Position numbers and translations under genes: made by a program. Below are positions 3,000-61,224 of a stretch of 64,000 nt of DNA, piece by piece (positions within the stretch are counted from its first letter, which is position 1; each line of letters begins with the position of its first letter). The notes under the pieces are model-generated. The model saw nothing but the letters and a program-made list of their open reading frames with translations. It made no database searches and was not told the origin of the DNA. This DNA comes from an uncultured Acidimicrobiaceae bacterium (GTDB lineage: Bacteria; Actinomycetota; Acidimicrobiia; Spongiisociales; UBA5794), in the NCBI GenBank assembly GCA_947258375.1, contig CAMYIJ010000013.1, forward strand, positions 6,171 through 70,170. The letters run 5' to 3'.

Positions 3000-3767
3000 T
3001 CAACCCGCCGTCAGGCCGCCGTCGATGGGCAGGGCAGCGCCGGTGATGAACCCCGCCTCGTCGGAAGCCAGGTAGAGGACGGCTGCGGCGATCTCTTGAG
3101 GGGTGGCGATGCGGCCGATGGGGTGTTTCTCTTCGAATTGGGGACGGACGGCGGCGATTCCTCCCATCTCCTCCATCTCGCCGCGCAGCATCGGCGTGTC
3201 GACGCTGCCGGGGCACACGCAGTTGATCCGCACACCCTGCCGGGCGTGGTCGAGCGCCATCGCCTTGGTGAGGAGCACCACTGCCCCCTTGGCGGCGCTG
3301 TAGGCGGCGACACCCCGGCCGCCGACCACTCCGAAGTAGGAGGCGTTGTTGACGATCGCTCCGCCGCCGCGAGCCGCCATCACTGCGACGGCAGCTCGCG
3401 ACATGAGGAACGTGCCCGTGGCGTTGACCGCCATCGTCTGGGCCCACTGCTCATCGGTCGTCTCGAGCGCCGATATGTCCCGATAGATGATGCCGGCGTT
3501 GTTGAACAGCACATCGAGCCCACCGAATCGCTCCAGGCAAGCCTCGACGGCGGCGTCGCAGTCGGCAGACTTCCTGACATCGCAAGCCACCGCGTGGGCC
3601 TTGCCCCCCGTAGCCTCGATCTCGGACACCACCGCTTGCGACTCGTCGAGGCGGCGGGCCGCGATGAGCACCCCGGCACCCGCCGCCGCGAACTGGAGAG
3701 CAGCCGCCCGACCGATCCCGGAGTTCCCTCCGGTGATCAGCACGGCCTTGTCCGTGAAGTCGCTCAT
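3000..3767 (-). CDS. Short-chain dehydrogenase/reductase (SDR) family oxidoreductase
   Basis: TGGNSGIGRA Rossmann motif, NNAG, YxxxK (YSAAK). Start ATG overlaps the upstream SDR stop (ATGA at 3764-3767). Confidence 0.9.
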   Translation of the reverse strand: MSDFTDKAVLITGGNSGIGRAAALQFAAAGAGVLIAARRLDESQAVVSEIEATGGKAHAVACDVRKSADCDAAVEACLERFGGLDVLFNNAGIIYRDISALETTDEQWAQTMAVNATGTFLMSRAAVAVMAARGGGAIVNNASYFGVVGGRGVAAYSAAKGAVVLLTKAMALDHARQGVRINCVCPGSVDTPMLRGEMEEMGGIAAVRPQFEEKHPIGRIATPQEIAAAVLYLASDEAGFITGAALPIDGGLTAG

Positions 3768-4510
3768 CGGGCCGTGTACCCGGCGTCGACAGTCACCAGC
3801 GAGCCGGTCATGTAGCTCGACGCATCAGATGCGAGGAAAGCAACGACCTCCGCCACCTCCCGCGGGTCGCCGAGCCGGCCCATCGGGACCGCTCTGTCGG
3901 CCAGGGCGTGCAATTCATCCTCGGTCGGCGGACGGTCGCGCTCGGATGACAGCATCGGCGTACGAATCTCCCCCGGCACAACGGCGTTCACTCGCACGCC
4001 ATGTCGGGCGTGCTCGAGCGCCATCGATTTCGTGAGCTGATGGACTGCTCCCTTGGTAGCGGCATAGGCCGAGTGCCCGGGCCCCCCGACGTCGCCCCAG
4101 ATCGAACCGAAGTTGACAATGGAGCCACGGCCCCGTGCCACCATGCCCCGGGCCGCGGCCCGGCTCATGTAGAACAGCCCGTCGATGTTGACGCTGAAGA
4201 TCCGGCGCCAGTCCTCATCGGAAGTGTCGACGGCATCGGCGCGGACGATGGTGCCGGCGGCGTTCACGAGGATGTCCACCGCACCCGCGCTCTCCTCGGT
4301 AGCAGCGATGACCCCGTCACAGAACGCCGAGTCGGCCACCGAGCCCACGTGGGCAACACCTTCGAGTTCAGTGGCGAACGGCGCGATGTTGGGGTTCATG
4401 TCGACAAGCACCACCTGTGCCCCCCGTTCCGCCAGGAGTACGGCTGAAGCATTCCCCATCCCGGAAGCCGCCCCGGTTATCACTGCCACACTGCCCGCGA
4501 GATCGCTCAC
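3764..4510 (-). CDS. SDR family oxidoreductase (second of a tandem pair)
   Basis: VAVITGAASGMG..., NAAG, YAATK motifs. Likely GTG start at 4510 (VSDLAGSVAVITG); the track ORF extends to 4741 through a GC-rich, non-protein-like N-terminal extension. Confidence 0.8.
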   Translation of the reverse strand: MSDLAGSVAVITGAASGMGNASAVLLAERGAQVVLVDMNPNIAPFATELEGVAHVGSVADSAFCDGVIAATEESAGAVDILVNAAGTIVRADAVDTSDEDWRRIFSVNIDGLFYMSRAAARGMVARGRGSIVNFGSIWGDVGGPGHSAYAATKGAVHQLTKSMALEHARHGVRVNAVVPGEIRTPMLSSERDRPPTEDELHALADRAVPMGRLGDPREVAEVVAFLASDASSYMTGSLVTVDAGYTAR

Positions 4511-11802: not shown

Positions 11803-11882
11803 CCCGGTCGCCGAGCAGGTGCAACCGCTTTGGCCGGCGCGGTGTTCATAAGGGTGCAACAGCGGAGGCACAGGGAGTATCA

Positions 11883-12431
11883 ATGGCAAAGGCAACGGGG
11901 CTGGTCGACCGTCTGGCCGTGGATGTCGATTGGGCGTTTCCAGATTTGGTGCTCGCCTACCAGGATCGCCTGTACTCCGGAGTGAGGTCCTTCGTCGGTT
12001 CCGCCGACGCGGAGGATGTCACCCAGGAAGCGTTGATACGCGCCCATAAGGCGCTGCACAGCTATGACGAGGATCGCATCCGGCAACTCCAGGTGAGTGC
12101 ATGGCTGTGGACGATCGCCATCAACCTGTGTCGCAATTGGGCGCGCACCCGATCGCGCCGACCGCAGACGGTGCAACTGACGTTCGACCGGCCAAGTGGC
12201 GACGAGGCGGCCGACGAGGCGATTGACGTCGTCATGCTCGACGGCTGGAAACAGCGCCTGGCCGGATTGAGTGAGGCACAGCGCGTTGCCGTCGTGCTCC
12301 GCCACGTCGTGGGGCTCAGCTATCGGGAGATCGCGGCAGCCACCGAACGCCCGGTGGGCACCGCCAAGACCGACGTGAGTCGGGGCCTCGCGGCCCTGCG
12401 CAAGATCATCTCCGAGGAGGGAACCCTATGA
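11883..12431 (+). CDS. ECF (extracytoplasmic function) sigma-70 family sigma factor
   Basis: AGGGAG RBS; region 2 (...DVTQEALIRAHKAL...) and region 4 (...LSYREIAAATERPVGTAKTDVSRGL...). The stop overlaps the next start (ATGA at 12428-12431). Confidence 0.85.
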   Translation: MAKATGLVDRLAVDVDWAFPDLVLAYQDRLYSGVRSFVGSADAEDVTQEALIRAHKALHSYDEDRIRQLQVSAWLWTIAINLCRNWARTRSRRPQTVQLTFDRPSGDEAADEAIDVVMLDGWKQRLAGLSEAQRVAVVLRHVVGLSYREIAAATERPVGTAKTDVSRGLAALRKIISEEGTL

Positions 12432-13198
12432 CAGACGACATTGCCCGCGAGCTCGAAGCCCTCGCGACGACAGCCCCGGATTCGCTGACCAGGAACGTGC
12501 TGATCGCGACCCGGACGGGACGGTTCTACGCGACCGTCGGCGGTCCCACCGGCGACCTCCTCATCGGGTGGAGTAGCGCCGGCATCTATGCAGTGGCCCC
12601 GATCGGTGAGCTGGCGCGTTTCCTCGAGGTGTACTCGGCCGGCCCGCTGGCGCCCATCCCCCAGCAGTTGCCGACGCCGTGGCAGCGCCAGGTTGCGGCG
12701 GCCCTCGAGTCGGGCAAGCTCGGCCGGCTGCCCGTGGATCTGACGGGACTCACCGAGTTCCAACAGGCCGTGCTCCGCAAGACCCTCGAGATCCCGCCGG
12801 GTCAGCTGCGTCCCTACGGGTGGGTTGCCCGCGAGATTGGCAAGCCGGGGGCAACCCGGGCAGTCGGATCGGCGCTCAACAAGAACCCGGTTCCCGTGCT
12901 CATCCCCTGCCACCGTGTCGGCCGCAGCGACGGCACCGTCGGCCGGTACGCATACGGCCCGGAGATGAAACGAGATCTGCTGCGAGCCGAGGGCCTCGAT
13001 CCCGACGAGGTCGACGATGCGGCGGAGCGCGGGGTGCGCTTCATCGGCAGCGCCACCACCAATATCTACTGCCATCCCACCTGCCACAACGCCAGGCGCA
13101 TCAAGCAAACCAACCGCGTTGAACTCCGCACCGCCGCCGCAGCTCGCAAGGCCGGTTTCCGTGCCTGCCTGGTCTGCCGCCCCGCCGCGGCTGCGTAG
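12428..13198 (+). CDS. Methylated-DNA-protein-cysteine methyltransferase (Ogt/MGMT) fused to a C-terminal Ada-type zinc-binding domain
   Basis: MGMT active site IPCHRV with DNA-binding helix; C-terminal CHPTC...(26 aa)...CLVCRP matches the Ada N-domain Cys4 zinc site (CX3C-X26-CX2C). Translationally coupled to the ECF sigma gene. Confidence 0.8.
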   Translation: MTDDIARELEALATTAPDSLTRNVLIATRTGRFYATVGGPTGDLLIGWSSAGIYAVAPIGELARFLEVYSAGPLAPIPQQLPTPWQRQVAAALESGKLGRLPVDLTGLTEFQQAVLRKTLEIPPGQLRPYGWVAREIGKPGATRAVGSALNKNPVPVLIPCHRVGRSDGTVGRYAYGPEMKRDLLRAEGLDPDEVDDAAERGVRFIGSATTNIYCHPTCHNARRIKQTNRVELRTAAAARKAGFRACLVCRPAAAA

Positions 13199-13234
13199 TG
13201 CTCCCCTTGAGTCGAGCTTTTCCGTGCCGATACC

Positions 13235-14005
13235 ATGGAAACGCTCTACCACCGGACACCTATGCCCCTGAAGCCGCAGACGCAGCCTCGGCTATCGCTC
13301 ACTGAGGCCTATCACGCCACGCAACGTTGGCTGGATCACATCGGCCTGCGCACCGTGACGATCAACGAACCGGCGGACGGAGTCGTTGAGCTGTGCAGCA
13401 GCACCCATATCGCCAGGATCAGAATCAACACAGGCCCGGTGAGCCAACGTGCCGTTCTCGCCCTGCTCCGGGTCGCCGAGGAGTCCGACCTGACCCCACT
13501 CCTGTTCTCGGCAACCGGCTTCAGCAACGGAGCGATCGGCTTCAGCGCCAGTCAGAACGTCGGGCTCTTCGACCTCGCAGCCGACGGCGAGATCATCCCG
13601 ATGAACAAGGTGGCCGGCCAATTGATGCCCGAGGAAGCGCTGGAACCGGCGTTCGCCTCGCCGATAGAGGCGGTCGAATCGGAAGGTCCTATCAGCTATT
13701 TCGAGGTTCCCTCCATAGAGGATGAGCCGAAGCAAGCGGAATCGATCGAACCAGGGGACCTGAGCGATTGGCGGACCTGCCCTCGCTGCGGATCCACCCA
13801 CCACCCAGGCACCCGGATGTGCGCCTCGTGCGGGGCCGACCTCTCCACGCCGACCGGGGGCGGCCAGCTGCTCGGACCGCGCGGTGCCCCGGCGGTGGTG
13901 CCGAAAAGGGCGCCGGGACCGTCGAATCCACCGAAACGAATCGGGCCGACCCTGCAATGCCGTACCTGCGGCAGCCACGAAATCGAGCTGATCTACCCCG
14001 ACTGA
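13235..14005 (+). CDS. Hypothetical protein with an N-terminal Mrr-like (PD-(D/E)xK restriction-endonuclease-fold) domain and two C-terminal zinc ribbons
   Basis: ...ADGVVELCSSTHIARIRIN...LLFSATGFSNGAIGF resembles the Mrr_cat core; CPRCG...CASCG and CRTCG zinc-ribbon pairs. Weak RBS; the start could be 13262. Confidence 0.55.
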   Translation: METLYHRTPMPLKPQTQPRLSLTEAYHATQRWLDHIGLRTVTINEPADGVVELCSSTHIARIRINTGPVSQRAVLALLRVAEESDLTPLLFSATGFSNGAIGFSASQNVGLFDLAADGEIIPMNKVAGQLMPEEALEPAFASPIEAVESEGPISYFEVPSIEDEPKQAESIEPGDLSDWRTCPRCGSTHHPGTRMCASCGADLSTPTGGGQLLGPRGAPAVVPKRAPGPSNPPKRIGPTLQCRTCGSHEIELIYPD

Positions 14006-14062: not shown

Positions 14063-14845
14063 ATGTCGCAAGCCGCCCTGTGGGATCCCGCCCGGTACCA
14101 GCAATACGGAGATCTCCGTCTCCGTCCCGCGCTCGAGCTGTTGTCGCGAGTATCTGCCGGAGCTCCTTCACTTGTCCATGACATTGGAACCGGCGGCGGC
14201 GAGATCGCTCGGTTGATGGCCCAGCGCTGGCCGAACGCCCGGGTCATCGGGTCGGATTCTTCCCGCGAGATGCTCGCCAAAGCGGCTGAGGTGGACTCAC
14301 CGGTCGAATGGCGCTTCCTCGACCTCGGCGATTGGATGCCCACCGCCGAGCACGATGTCATCTACGGCAATGCCGTCCTCCACTGGCTCCCCGACCATGC
14401 CGAGCTGCTCCCGCGCCTCGTTGGTGGCCTGGCGCCGGGCGGCGAGTTGGCAGTCCAAATGCCGCTGAGTTGGTGGCAGCCGTCGCATCAAGCAATCCGC
14501 GAGACGCTGGGGGACCTGACCGGCCCGGAGGCACAGGCGCTCAATGCGTCGATGGCGGAGCCCAACGTGTATCTGCCGAACCGCTACTACGAGATCATCG
14601 AACCGCTCTCGTCGGCCCTCGACATCTGGGAGACGACCTACCAGCAGATCCTGACCGGCGCCGACCCGGTATTCGAGTGGGTCAGTGGCAGCATCCTACG
14701 GCCGGTCCTGACGCAGCTTCCCGCCGCCGACGCCGCTCACTTCTCCGACCTGTGCCGCCGGGCGCTGCGTACGGCCTATCCACCCCAACCCGACGGCACA
14801 ACCCTCTTCCCGTTCCGCCGGCTGTTCATCGTGGCCCGCCGGTGA
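14063..14845 (+). CDS. tam: Trans-aconitate 2-methyltransferase (Tam) family class I SAM methyltransferase
   Basis: N-terminal MSQAALWDPARYQQYGDLRLRPALELL and SAM motif VHDIGTGGGE, both typical of Tam. Confidence 0.85.
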   Translation: MSQAALWDPARYQQYGDLRLRPALELLSRVSAGAPSLVHDIGTGGGEIARLMAQRWPNARVIGSDSSREMLAKAAEVDSPVEWRFLDLGDWMPTAEHDVIYGNAVLHWLPDHAELLPRLVGGLAPGGELAVQMPLSWWQPSHQAIRETLGDLTGPEAQALNASMAEPNVYLPNRYYEIIEPLSSALDIWETTYQQILTGADPVFEWVSGSILRPVLTQLPAADAAHFSDLCRRALRTAYPPQPDGTTLFPFRRLFIVARR

Positions 14846-15714
14846 GGTACCCCATCGCCCCCAACGTGACCGCACCGACACTGGGCGACGCGGCCCGGCT
14901 GGCGCTTCCGGCCAGGCGATTGCTGAACCGCAGCCGAATTCGGCGGATCGCCTCGGCTCGAAGCAACGAGGAACGCGACGTTGCGATCCGGCGCTGGAGC
15001 ACCGAACTCCTCCAGACGTTGGACGTCCGGCTGCAACTGACCGGGCTGTCCCACATCGATCCGCGTCGGCCCTTCCTGGTGCTGTCCCTGCACGAGGGGC
15101 TACTGGACGTTCCTCTGCTGTTGCAGTTGCCCGTCCCAATGACGTTCGTGGCCCGGGCCGACCTCGCCGCGGAGCGGCCGATGGATCGATTGCTCGAAGC
15201 CGGCCGGCCGATCCTCATCAATCCGGAGGCTCCGAGCGCGCTACGTGTGGTGTTGCGCGAGGCCGAGCGAGCTCTGGGGCAGGGACGATCGGTGGCGATG
15301 TTCCCTCAGGGCACCGTCCTCGGAGTCGAGACGTCGTTTCAGCGGGGAGCGTTGGCAGTGGCCGGGCGGCTGGAGATGCCTGTGCTGCCGGTGGTCATCG
15401 CCGGTAGCCATCGGATCTGGGAACACCCCTTCTCGCCCGTCGTGAGAAGGGGTCAGCGAGTCCACATGGAGGTTCTGGCCCCGCGCCCGGTCGCAGCCGC
15501 CGCCGAGTATCGGGCGCTGGAAAGGGAGATGAAGGAACGGGCCATCAAGAACCCATCGGCGTGGCCGCGCCGCTACCTGCCTGAACGGGACGGGTATTGG
15601 GACGGGTACCGCTTTGACATCGATCCGGACTACCCCGCCCTCGAGGAGCAGATCTCGCGACGTCGCCGGGCAGTCGCAGCCGACGGCACGGCACGCGCCA
15701 CAAGGACGGTCTGA
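14842..15714 (+). CDS. Lysophospholipid / glycerol-3-phosphate acyltransferase family (PlsC-like)
   Basis: GTG start overlapping the tam TGA (gTGA). HX4D motif (LHEGLLD) and FPQGT motif III of acyltransferases. Confidence 0.65.
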   Translation: MRYPIAPNVTAPTLGDAARLALPARRLLNRSRIRRIASARSNEERDVAIRRWSTELLQTLDVRLQLTGLSHIDPRRPFLVLSLHEGLLDVPLLLQLPVPMTFVARADLAAERPMDRLLEAGRPILINPEAPSALRVVLREAERALGQGRSVAMFPQGTVLGVETSFQRGALAVAGRLEMPVLPVVIAGSHRIWEHPFSPVVRRGQRVHMEVLAPRPVAAAAEYRALEREMKERAIKNPSAWPRRYLPERDGYWDGYRFDIDPDYPALEEQISRRRRAVAADGTARATRTV

Positions 15715-40295: not shown

Positions 40296-40565
40296 TTTGG
40301 CTGGCGCCAAACTCGGGGCAACGTCTCCTCCCCCGTTTGACACGAAGTGGCAAACGTCTGGGGGAGGTGCCCGAGGAACGAGGGCGGAGGGGGAAGCCAA
40401 GACGCGACGGACAGCTTGATGCGCGTACGCCGCGCCGGGCGCTGGTCGCGCCACCTCTGCGTGGAGTTGCGCAGCAACTCCCAAGGAACCCGAAGGGTTC
40501 CCGCCCACCTCGCCCCCCAATTGTTGCCCGCCGAGGACGGCGTGCAACGGGGGGAGAGACAGCGC

Positions 40566-60133: not shown

Positions 60134-61224
60134 CTGAGACCCGCATCCAGATCGGTCGGCTCGAAGGCTTCGCAGCCGCGATTCTCGGCGGTTTCGGAGT
60201 ACAGGACGACCATGCCGCGATCACCGCGCGGCGGCTCGTAGAGGCCGACGCCCGGGGCCGGACCGGGCATGGCCTCATCCGCCTCAGTCCCTATGTCGAT
60301 CGGATCGAAGCCGGCGGGCTCAACCTCTCGCCGAACATACGGGCGCTCCACGAAACCCCGGTGTCTGCTCTGATCGACGGAGACAATGGGCTCGGCCAGG
60401 TCGTGATGACCCGGGCGACGGAGCTGGCGATAGCCAAGGCCGAGACCAGCGGCCTTGCCTGGGTCGGGACGGTCCACTCCAACCACGCCGGCGCCGCCGG
60501 GATCTATCCGGCGATGGCCGCCGACCGCGGACTGATAGGCATGTACCTGGCCGTGGCCAACGCCAACGGCATGCCGCCGTGGGGAGGGACCGAACGAGTT
60601 CTCGGCACCAACCCGATCGCCTTTGCGATTCCGGCGGGCGCCACCGACCGCTTCGAGCTCGACATCGCGACGACGGTGGCCTCGCACGGCACGATCAAGG
60701 TCGTCGCCCAGGCGGGCGAACAGATGCCGGAAGGCTGGGTGATCGATGCCGCCGGCAACTCGATCACCGACCCGAAGCGAGCCCACGAAGGCTCTCTGAT
60801 GCCCATCGGTGGATACAAGGGGGCCGGACTCAACATCGCCATCGGGCTGCTGGCCGGCGTGCTCAACGGCAGCGCTTTTGGCAAGTCGGTGATCGACCAC
60901 CGGGTTCAAATGGACATCCCGACCAACACGGGCCAGGCCATCCTGGTGATGCGGCTCGATCTCTTCATGGCGCGCGACGAGATCGAAGCGGCCATGCGGG
61001 CCAAGCTCGACGAGCTGCGCAACACGGGCGCCGACGGCGGCCGCATCCAACTCCCCGGTGAGCGGGCCGCGGCGCGGATTGCCGACAACACTGCGAACGG
61101 GGTGCCGTTGCCGGAGCCGCTACGACTCCAACTGAACGAGCTCGCCGGGCGCGCCGGGATGACGGACACGCTCGGCCAGGAGGGCCCGTCGGGCGCTACC
61201 CGTCCCGCAGTGGGGCAACGGTGA
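60130..61224 (+). CDS. Ldh_2 family oxidoreductase (malate / L-lactate / sulfolactate dehydrogenase type 2)
   Basis: ...GRTGHGLIRL... and ...HSNHAGAAG... signatures; the start overlaps the upstream stop (ATGA). Confidence 0.85.
   Translation: MTETRIQIGRLEGFAAAILGGFGVQDDHAAITARRLVEADARGRTGHGLIRLSPYVDRIEAGGLNLSPNIRALHETPVSALIDGDNGLGQVVMTRATELAIAKAETSGLAWVGTVHSNHAGAAGIYPAMAADRGLIGMYLAVANANGMPPWGGTERVLGTNPIAFAIPAGATDRFELDIATTVASHGTIKVVAQAGEQMPEGWVIDAAGNSITDPKRAHEGSLMPIGGYKGAGLNIAIGLLAGVLNGSAFGKSVIDHRVQMDIPTNTGQAILVMRLDLFMARDEIEAAMRAKLDELRNTGADGGRIQLPGERAAARIADNTANGVPLPEPLRLQLNELAGRAGMTDTLGQEGPSGATRPAVGQR

Follow-up and report, generated by a model that had tools for sequence, protein, structure and literature searches.

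We identified in the 64-kb window (the whole stretch of DNA that was analyzed) an ECF sigma factor gene coupled to a gene that encodes an alkyltransferase with a carboxy-terminal Ada-type zinc domain (Table 1). No class of alternative sigma factors is larger than that of the ECF sigma factors, and for many of their groups we know of no assigned input signal. The sigma protein matched the Pfam domains Sigma70_r2 (E 9.1e-15, residues 22-93) and Sigma70_r4_2 (E 2.8e-12, residues 124-172) and likewise Sigma70_ECF, and it scored 72.7 bits against the TIGR02937 model of the sigma70-ECF superfamily (NCBIfam; cut-off, 42.9). It has the length of the ~170-220 aa class and is without regions 1.1 and 3, as are ECF (group IV) sigma factors. 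A GAGGAGG Shine-Dalgarno sequence lies within the 3' end of the sigma gene, ahead of an ATGA that holds both the start codon of the partner gene and the stop codon of the sigma gene (4-nt overlap). Independent gene calls returned the same overlap. Further, a 4-nt overlap was the chosen partner start in 38 related loci and, where both genes were complete and unbroken, the gap between them ranged only from -20 to +38 nt. The original prediction of an ECF sigma gene coupled via ATGA to an alkyltransferase gene was borne out by the Pfam domains and by the overlap, which can be read directly.

Table 1. Coordinates of the sigma factor gene, its partner gene and associated features in the window.
Feature	Position	Strand	Description
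ECF-type operon promoter	11820..11847	+	-35 TGCAACC, 11820-11826; -10 GTGTTC, 11842-11847
Ribosome-binding site of the sigma gene	11873-11877	+	GGGAG, from the sequence
ECF sigma gene	11883..12431	+	182 aa; sigma2 and sigma4 domains only
Coupling junction	12414..12431	+	Shine-Dalgarno, 12414-12420; ATGA overlap, 12428-12431; read from the sequence
Partner gene	12428..13198	+	256 aa; alkyltransferase with C-terminal Ada-type Cys4 zinc domain
N-terminal two-helix segment	12428..12517	+	aa 1-30, LxxLAxxAPxxLxxxVL; anti-sigma remnant
O6-alkylguanine-DNA alkyltransferase, N- and C-domains	12518..12994	+	aa 31-189; PF01035, Foldseek
Active-site Cys161 codon	12908-12910	+	IPCHRV motif, from the sequence
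Ada-N-type Cys4 zinc domain	13016..13183	+	aa 197-252; PF02805
Cys215 codon	13070-13072	+	From the sequence

The body of the partner protein matched PF01035 well above the cut-off (E 1.8e-29, 101.8 bits, residues 110-189), and its AF2 model was of high confidence (pLDDT 93.9, pTM 0.86). In Foldseek, the model matched alkyltransferases with both domains complete (C-Ada 1sfe, human AGT and M. tuberculosis OGT), with E values of ~1e-11 over ~165 columns for 1sfe, 1yfh and 4bhb and target-normalised TM-scores of 0.74-0.80 against 1sfe, 4bhb and 4zye. The two-domain AGT fold, an alpha/beta N-domain followed by a helix-turn-helix C-domain, is present in the model, in agreement with the earlier description of the protein as a complete alkyltransferase with a PCHRV motif. 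Residues Y130, R144, N153, C161, H162, R163 and E188 are invariant in the partner family, and the protein has the PCHR(V/I) cysteine, the His-Glu network, the tyrosine, the Arg-finger and the Asn-hinge of AGTs. From these invariant residues we predict a catalytically intact, single-use alkyltransferase.

The carboxy-terminal domain matched PF02805 (Ada_Zn_binding; E 9.8e-12, 45.1 bits, cut-off 23) and aligns with residues 29-76 of E. coli N-Ada (structures 1adn, 1wpk, 1u8b and 1zgw). The predicted zinc ligands Cys215, 219, 247 and 250 fall on Cys38, 42, 69 and 72 of Ada and, with Cys161, are invariant in 79 sequences. The Cys4 domain was thus correctly recognized by the original prediction, although the spacing is CX3C-X27-CX2C and not CX3C-X26-CX2C. 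Also upheld was the domain order (alkyltransferase, then zinc domain, with no AraC domain), as Pfam returned no HTH_18 or AraC match. Because of the missing AraC match and of an NCBIfam score for the Ada equivalog of only 96.7 bits (cut-off, 345), the partner is not an Ada orthologue. Forms of 195-199 aa that lack the zinc domain still overlap an ECF sigma gene, which makes the domain accessory and does not sustain the idea of a zinc sensor at the core of the sigma partnership.

Preceding the MGMT N-domain, the AF2 model has two helices (residues 2-12 and 18-28), in which L9 and P17 are invariant in the partner family and L12 and A16 nearly so. Searches with Pfam identified no anti-sigma domain and no zf-HC2 match in the window protein. 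However, longer relatives (~300 aa), which also overlap an ECF sigma gene, carry an amino-terminal domain with a cysteine and an HxxxCxxC motif before the same MGMT-Ada_Zn body in 14 of the 150 best clusters at 50% identity; a long amino terminus without the motif was present in 11 further clusters. The zf-HC2 domain was matched at E<=0.01 by 11 of the 14 long-form amino termini and exceeded the Pfam cut-off in two proteins (P0261 and P0264). In the PDB, the profile of these termini matched RsiW (5wuq) at 6.2e-9, as well as RslA, DdvA and ChrR. Using hhalign, we aligned the first ~30 residues of the partner with the long-form termini (probability 84.7%, E 6.7e-6), and the alignment places them just after the HxxxCxxC motif. 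Residues 1-30 are thus what is left of a class I anti-sigma domain, namely its last helices. The claim that the protein is not a recognizable anti-sigma factor holds in that no Pfam domain is present, but not for this segment, which is homologous to the last anti-sigma helices. The four-helix anti-sigma domain with HxxxCxxC is a property of the long relatives; the window protein is without helices I-III and the zinc motif, the elements that provide most of the contacts with sigma in known complexes.

The pairing of the two genes is not a matter of chance. At 77 of 80 related loci the immediate upstream neighbor, in the same orientation, is an ECF sigma gene, and the other three have less than 300 nt of upstream DNA, so that all 77 testable loci carry it. 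The paired loci were taken from Acidimicrobiia, Amycolatopsis, Chloroflexota and Dormibacterota. Hence, the search of other genomes proposed with the original prediction returned a widespread linkage and, with several phyla, a usually overlapping start and a shared promoter, ruled out a stand-alone repair gene. As is typical of anti-sigma genes, the partner gene is directly 3' of the ECF sigma gene and co-transcribed with it, with the 4-nt overlap and the 77 loci as evidence. All-against-all clustering of the neighboring ORFs in the related loci identified no third conserved gene, and no natural sigma-partner fusion was present among the 120 best matches to a concatenated 438-aa query. Three in-frame read-throughs (L020, L021 and L041) were rejected as fusions and are most likely long-read frameshift errors, because the sigma match is split between frames and L021 shares an identical promoter stretch with L017, a locus with separate genes. 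A 437-aa protein (P0375) was also discarded, as it has no sigma domain.

Neighbors further downstream are lineage-specific. A DUF885 protein, a zinc-ribbon protein, a Tam-like methyltransferase and an acyltransferase are common only to close Acidimicrobiia in the ORF clustering, and the earlier inclusion of the downstream genes in the module did not hold. The Mrr/PD-(D/E)xK label given to the gene at 13235-14005 could not be confirmed: the amino-terminal half of its protein had no Pfam or NCBIfam match even at E<=10, the zinc ribbons were matched only below threshold, and the single-sequence AF2 model (pLDDT 46.7) was too poor to use. By contrast, the acyltransferase domain was confirmed with Pfam and the Tam-type label was a fair one, trans-aconitate methyltransferase being the best NCBIfam match at 251 bits, below the 320-bit cut-off.

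Upstream of the sigma gene we identified an ECF-type promoter. Its -35 element is AAC-type and its -10 element GTT-type, and a 16-nt spacer (counted between TGCAAC and GTGTT) separates the two. Transcription is predicted to begin at about 11853-11856. The pattern TGCAAC-N15-18-GKGTT has one exact match in the 64-kb window (11820-11846), versus 0.16 expected. In 64 related loci this bipartite motif recurs, 20-100 nt upstream of where the sigma gene starts. Over 726 kb of loci, we counted 68 matches versus 1.45 in shuffles, 64 of the 68 at a sigma gene. This conservation implies autoregulation, with the sigma factor probably using its own promoter. The motif also precedes a plain ogt gene in one locus (L068) and, in Amycolatopsis (L057), a gene for a DNA-repair oxygenase (PF09859); in another locus (L073) a PF09859 oxygenase gene is directly downstream of the sigma-partner pair. 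An alkB gene was also found in the Amycolatopsis locus. Two matches inside an ORF that by eye resembles inositol-phosphate-synthase (L034 and L052) are probably due to chance. When the pattern was relaxed to GCAAC-N15-18-GKGTT, two further matches appeared in the window, at 40474 (+) and 61087 (-), versus 0.81 expected. We rejected both as chance because they are inside open reading frames with no plausible downstream gene; the gene that contains the match at 61087 is encoded on the opposite strand. With a single promoter copy, the regulon in this window may be the operon itself and perhaps nothing more. No conserved operator was found upstream in the related loci apart from the -35 and -10 elements.

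The association of a sigma factor with an alkyltransferase is, in itself, already catalogued as ECF122 (Casas-Pastor et al., 2021, summarized in PMC8999054), a group described there as adjoining a 6-O-methylguanine DNA methyltransferase, lacking an anti-sigma factor and being of "unknown mechanism". Its actinobacterial representative is from Cellulomonas sp. Root930 (WP_057211282.1; PMC8999054). Compared by gene context and by that published description, ECF122 and the window pair share the neighboring methyltransferase and the lack of a recognizable anti-sigma factor. Not covered by the note on ECF122, as summarized, are the zinc domain of Ada type, the remnant of an anti-sigma domain, the relatives with a ZAS domain, the promoter and the additional repair genes. 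In our literature search we came across no experiments on ECF sigma factors that have an alkyltransferase partner.

As in the ZAS systems (RsrA, RsiW, RslA and ChrR), the partner gene comes after an autoregulated ECF sigma gene, with which it overlaps, and longer members of its family have the Cys and HxxxCxxC domain; reactive, zinc-bound cysteines would also be the sensing chemistry, as in RsrA. The window protein differs from them in retaining only the last helices, with no ZAS motif, and the proposed signal would be alkyl-group transfer from DNA to the active site of the enzyme and not thiol oxidation or the proteolysis of a membrane protein. The partner resembles E. coli Ada in combining an alkyltransferase with a Cys4 methylphosphotriester-acceptor domain (best PDB matches, 1sfe and 1adn) and in tying a repair protein to the control of its own synthesis. 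In Ada, methylation of Cys38 is known to act as a regulatory switch (PMC10779285). Unlike Ada, however, the partner has its zinc domain at the carboxy terminus and no AraC-type DNA-binding domain, and its output would use a dedicated ECF sigma factor instead of the activation of sigma70 at an ada box. With stand-alone Ogt/MGMT proteins it shares the two-domain fold, the PCHRV motif and the conserved Tyr, Arg, Asn, His and Glu, yet it has extra amino-terminal helices, the carboxy-terminal zinc domain and an obligate pairing with a sigma gene.

Based on these results, we propose that the two genes form a self-activating ECF sigma module that both senses and answers DNA alkylation, a reading to which we assign a probability of roughly 55%. 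The unalkylated partner would keep the sigma factor inactive, presumably through sigma binding by the short form. On encountering damaged DNA, the partner would take up an alkyl group on Cys161 and/or, from methylphosphotriesters, on Cys215. Alkylation destabilizes AGTs, breaks the contacts between their N- and C-domains and leads to their degradation. Destabilized or reshaped in this way, the alkylated partner would be expected to release the sigma factor. From the TGCAACC-N16-GTGTTC promoter, the sigma factor would then transcribe the operon that encodes it. New transcription would replace the consumed repair protein, and inhibition would return once the lesions were gone. We assign the role of brake to the partner because a positive autoregulatory loop needs one and the partner is the only conserved candidate. 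Speaking against the module are the missing helices I-III and zinc motif, the listing of ECF122 without an anti-sigma factor, the lack of a natural sigma-partner fusion among the 120 best matches and the single promoter copy in the window. Of the two possibilities in the original prediction, a repair module under sigma control or an alkylation-responsive partner switch, the switch is the better supported, because longer relatives bear a ZAS domain on the same body; the promoter at other repair genes also speaks for the idea, which is partly supported overall. Somewhat more tentatively, and at slightly worse than even odds, the single-use repair enzyme may itself be the anti-sigma factor. One inhibitor would then be lost per lesion, so that release would be titrated by the damage and the adaptive response would be independent of Ada. 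The short form would bind sigma in a new mode, via the last anti-sigma helix and the alkyltransferase body, with the Ada zinc site as a second input from methylphosphotriesters.

The reduction of the anti-sigma domain to ~30 residues with no zinc motif, which Pfam does not see as an anti-sigma domain, could also mean that the sigma factor drives a repair operon of which the partner is only a product. The sigma factor would be controlled otherwise (by transcription, turnover or an unlinked factor) and the amino terminus would be a structural vestige. The partner has all the residues of a working repair enzyme and ECF122 is listed (PMC8999054) without an anti-sigma factor, both consistent with this alternative. 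We regard it nonetheless as rather unlikely. The invariance of L9 and P17 points to a remnant under selection, in sister forms the same body bears an anti-sigma domain that is complete, and pairing and coupling are kept across phyla, as is typical of partners needed in a fixed ratio. Furthermore, an autoregulated sigma factor without an inhibitor would lock on. More doubtful still is a positive role like that of Ada, in which methylation of the zinc site would confer DNA affinity and the partner would aid the sigma-RNA polymerase holoenzyme. Methylated Ada does activate transcription via an electrostatic switch (PMC10779285) and the Cys4 site is invariant and aligned with that of Ada. However, the partner has no AraC-type helix-turn-helix for sequence-specific binding and no conserved operator accompanies the promoter elements; moreover, forms without the Ada domain retain the sigma partnership and the long relatives bear an inhibitory (anti-sigma) module. 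Finally, that an ordinary repair gene lies behind a sigma gene by coincidence, as the presence of two common repair modules and nothing more would allow, is refuted by the sigma gene at every testable locus in several phyla, the shared promoter and the overlapping or near-overlapping starts.

The self-activating module can be tested directly, as Amycolatopsis anabasis EGI 650086 (L057) is a cultured carrier of the pair. The family also offers a natural dissection of the parts that are needed, in a series that runs from the full ZAS domain to its shortened form and in which the Ada zinc domain is present or absent. Should the partner be an anti-sigma factor, DNA alkylation would be a new kind of input for ECF sigma factors, sensed through the irreversible self-alkylation of an enzyme, a mechanism distinct from the redox, proteolytic and partner-switch ones described to date. 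This would further account for how an adaptive response could operate without a canonical Ada in Acidimicrobiia, some Actinomycetes, Chloroflexota and Dormibacterota.

We identified on the forward strand of the window two overlapping genes for an ECF sigma factor, which scores above the cut-off of the NCBIfam ECF superfamily model, and a partner protein that combines an alkyltransferase C-domain (PF01035, 1.8e-29, IPCHRV) with an Ada zinc domain (PF02805, 9.8e-12). The ribosome-binding site of the partner gene (GAGGAGG) sits within the 3' end of the sigma gene. The AlphaFold2 model of the partner, built from 49 homologues (pLDDT 93.9, pTM 0.86), matches complete two-domain alkyltransferases in superposition (E. 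coli C-Ada, 1sfe; human AGT; M. tuberculosis OGT), and aligning its C-terminal domain with E. coli N-Ada pairs Cys215, 219, 247 and 250 with Cys38, 42, 69 and 72, the zinc ligands of N-Ada. These analyses bear out the original prediction of an ECF sigma gene beside an alkyltransferase-Ada zinc fusion, with the cysteine spacing corrected from X26 to CX3C-X27-CX2C. Across 79 aligned family members there is no variation at the active-site Cys161, at any of the four zinc cysteines or at the alkyltransferase residues Y130, R144, N153, H162, R163 and E188. The sequence of the partner is that of a functional suicide alkyltransferase whose Ada-type acceptor site is intact. The AraC-type DNA-binding domain that Ada carries was not found in the partner by Pfam, and the protein falls far below the cut-off of the NCBIfam Ada model; thus, it is not an Ada orthologue. 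One family protein from the profile search (P0367) has PGHRV in place of PCHRV (active-site Cys to Gly) and keeps the Ada zinc cysteines; with this change it may be a non-catalytic variant of the alkyltransferase-like kind.

The pairing of the two genes is conserved. Scanning one genome per species, we found 162 relatives and retained the best 80 loci, which are mostly from Acidimicrobiia but also from Amycolatopsis anabasis, Chloroflexota and Dormibacterota. In 77 of the 80, the adjacent upstream gene, on the same strand, encodes an ECF sigma homologue, and the other three have less than 300 nt of DNA upstream. Hence the fusion is sigma-linked in other genomes as well, which goes against the stand-alone repair gene that the original prediction had named as a possible refutation. 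Among loci with intact, full-length copies of both genes, the gap ranges from -20 to +38 nt, with an identical 4-nt overlap in 38 loci; gene calls made independently, with Pfam hits computed in advance, gave the same arrangement. In three long-read MAG assemblies (L020, L021 and L041) the sigma gene seems either to contain a frameshift or to continue in frame into the partner gene, which most likely reflects indel errors rather than real fusions. Clustering of all neighboring ORFs revealed no third gene conserved throughout the set, so the module consists of two genes. The downstream genes that had been assigned to it (zinc-ribbon protein, Tam-like methyltransferase and acyltransferase) are, like the DUF885 gene, common to close relatives only and at variable distances.

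Features of the sigma-partner region in the window
Feature	Coordinates	Strand	Remarks
DUF885 protein, 569 aa	10093-11802	+	Pfam 1.7e-127; directly upstream of sigma promoter
ECF-type promoter motif	11820-11847	+	sole exact match in 64-kb window vs 0.16 expected
ECF sigma factor, plain, 182 aa	11883-12431	+	Pfam Sigma70_r2 and Sigma70_r4_2
Partner gene, 256 aa	12428-13198	+	ATG within ATGA shared with sigma stop codon
Zinc-ribbon protein, 256 aa	13235-14005	+	begins 36 nt past partner gene
Tam-like methyltransferase	14063-14845	+	251 bits on trans-aconitate methyltransferase model, cut-off 320
Acyltransferase ORF as listed	14308-15714	+	Pfam domain from residue 242

Synteny between the DUF885 and sigma genes is kept in 18 related Acidimicrobiia loci and absent in other phyla. 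The zinc-ribbon protein, which has homologues in about 10 Acidimicrobiia loci, their distance from the pair varying, carries two CxxC-type motifs with sub-threshold Pfam matches, and no family match was found for its N-terminal half. Its low-confidence AlphaFold2 model has an alpha-beta-beta-beta-alpha-beta order. A PD-(D/E)xK core could also show this order, but the model does not count as evidence for such a core. The acyltransferase ORF as listed shares more than 500 nt with the methyltransferase gene and its Pfam domain starts late; its real start is therefore probably near 14850 or later.

Relatives of the partner carry a recognizable anti-sigma domain. Searching 1.84 billion representative proteins with the family profile returned 705 clusters (E<=1e-30). 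Among the best 150, the window-like form and the same form without the Ada zinc domain (195-199 aa) accounted for 40 clusters each and 25 had an N-terminal extension of ~40-60 residues; the others were N-terminally truncated fragments, PCHR-less proteins or long forms without the Ada domain. Fourteen of the 25 extensions contain HxxxCxxC, with Cys3, His26, Cys30 and Cys33 invariant in all 14. The zinc anti-sigma motif zf-HC2 matches 11 of these 14 at E<=0.01 and scores above the Pfam cut-off in two proteins (P0261 and P0264). The N-terminal profile of these long forms matches RsiW in complex with SigW (5wuq) at 6.2e-9, followed by RslA, DdvA and ChrR. Long-form genes also overlap an ECF sigma gene, whose product is 34-39% identical to the window sigma. 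In the partner model, residues 1-30 form two helices preceding the alkyltransferase N-domain, with L9 and P17 invariant in the alignment. Because this segment aligns with the long-form part after the zinc motif (hhalign probability 84.7%, E 6.7e-6) and with the end of the cytoplasmic anti-sigma domain of RsiW, we conclude from these alignments that the partner retains an anti-sigma domain in truncated form. Genes for the forms that lack the Ada domain still overlap a sigma gene; thus, the conserved core of the partner is the anti-sigma remnant plus alkyltransferase, and the Ada zinc domain is accessory. At one long-form locus (L089), a SpoIIE/PP2C-type phosphatase gene (3405-4112, +) directly follows the anti-sigma-alkyltransferase gene, a possible sign of further regulation in that lineage.

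A bipartite motif, TGCAAC(C)-N15-18-G(G/T)GTT(C/G), is strongly conserved upstream of the sigma gene and has the form expected of an ECF promoter. We counted 68 matches in 726 kb of related loci (1.45 in shuffles), 64 of them just upstream of the sigma gene, a position implying that the sigma transcribes its own operon. Within the window, the motif search picked out the operon's own promoter only. A second TGCAAC (11855-11860, +), downstream of the -10 element but ahead of the sigma start codon and near the predicted transcription start, is not conserved in the closest relative (L002) and probably reflects chance. Two of the four matches elsewhere were informative: one directly precedes a PF09859 'Oxygenase-NA' gene (257 bits) in Amycolatopsis (L057), where alkB also lies just downstream of the pair, and the other precedes a divergent plain ogt gene on a Dormibacterota contig (L068). 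Together with a PF09859 oxygenase 36 nt past the partner gene at another locus (L073), these links favor a sigma regulon dedicated to alkylation repair.

The Amycolatopsis anabasis locus (NZ_VTHK01000013.1, 5001-7960) is an alkylation-repair island comprising sigma, MGMT-Ada_Zn, an AlkB-family oxygenase (PF13532, 6348-6986) and an ~87-aa Ada_Zn-like ORF without one zinc cysteine; the PF09859 oxygenase is convergent and carries its own sigma-type promoter copy. This species is cultured and so suited to experiments. In the Dormibacterota contig, the plain Ogt (1723-2295, -; 174 aa) is followed by an ORF with a DNA-ligase-like KxDG motif, and the arrangement suggests a regulon that includes a second alkyltransferase.

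Alkyltransferases are known to become unstable once their active-site cysteine is alkylated; contact of the N-domain with the C-domain is disrupted, and degradation follows. In Ada, methylation of the zinc cysteine acts as an established regulatory switch (PMC10779285). We infer, at slightly better than even odds (about 0.55), that the partner binds and holds the sigma inactive until alkylation releases it. The unalkylated partner would probably keep the sigma inactive, and either alkyl transfer to the active-site cysteine or methylation of the Ada-type zinc cysteine could free it; transcription of the operon by the freed sigma would then make up for the consumed partner, giving a self-limiting loop. 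The main weakness of this anti-sigma model is that the helices responsible for most contacts in known complexes are missing from the short form. A less probable but still plausible alternative is that the pair is purely an output, forming a repair operon under a sigma whose control lies elsewhere. The partner, which, unlike E. coli Ada, has no AraC-type DNA-binding domain, is unlikely to act as an Ada-like co-activator.

Literature searches returned no experimental study of an ECF sigma with an alkyltransferase partner, and no reference, for such pairs, to an Ada zinc domain, an anti-sigma remnant or ZAS-bearing relatives. The ECF122 entry of a 2022 review, which cites the 2021 ECF sigma reclassification and gives a representative from Cellulomonas sp. 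Root930, records 6-O-methylguanine DNA methyltransferases as conserved neighbors, describes the group as lacking an anti-sigma factor and gives its mechanism as unknown (PMC8999054). Thus, the sigma-alkyltransferase association is already catalogued; our analysis supplies a specific, testable hypothesis for its mechanism.
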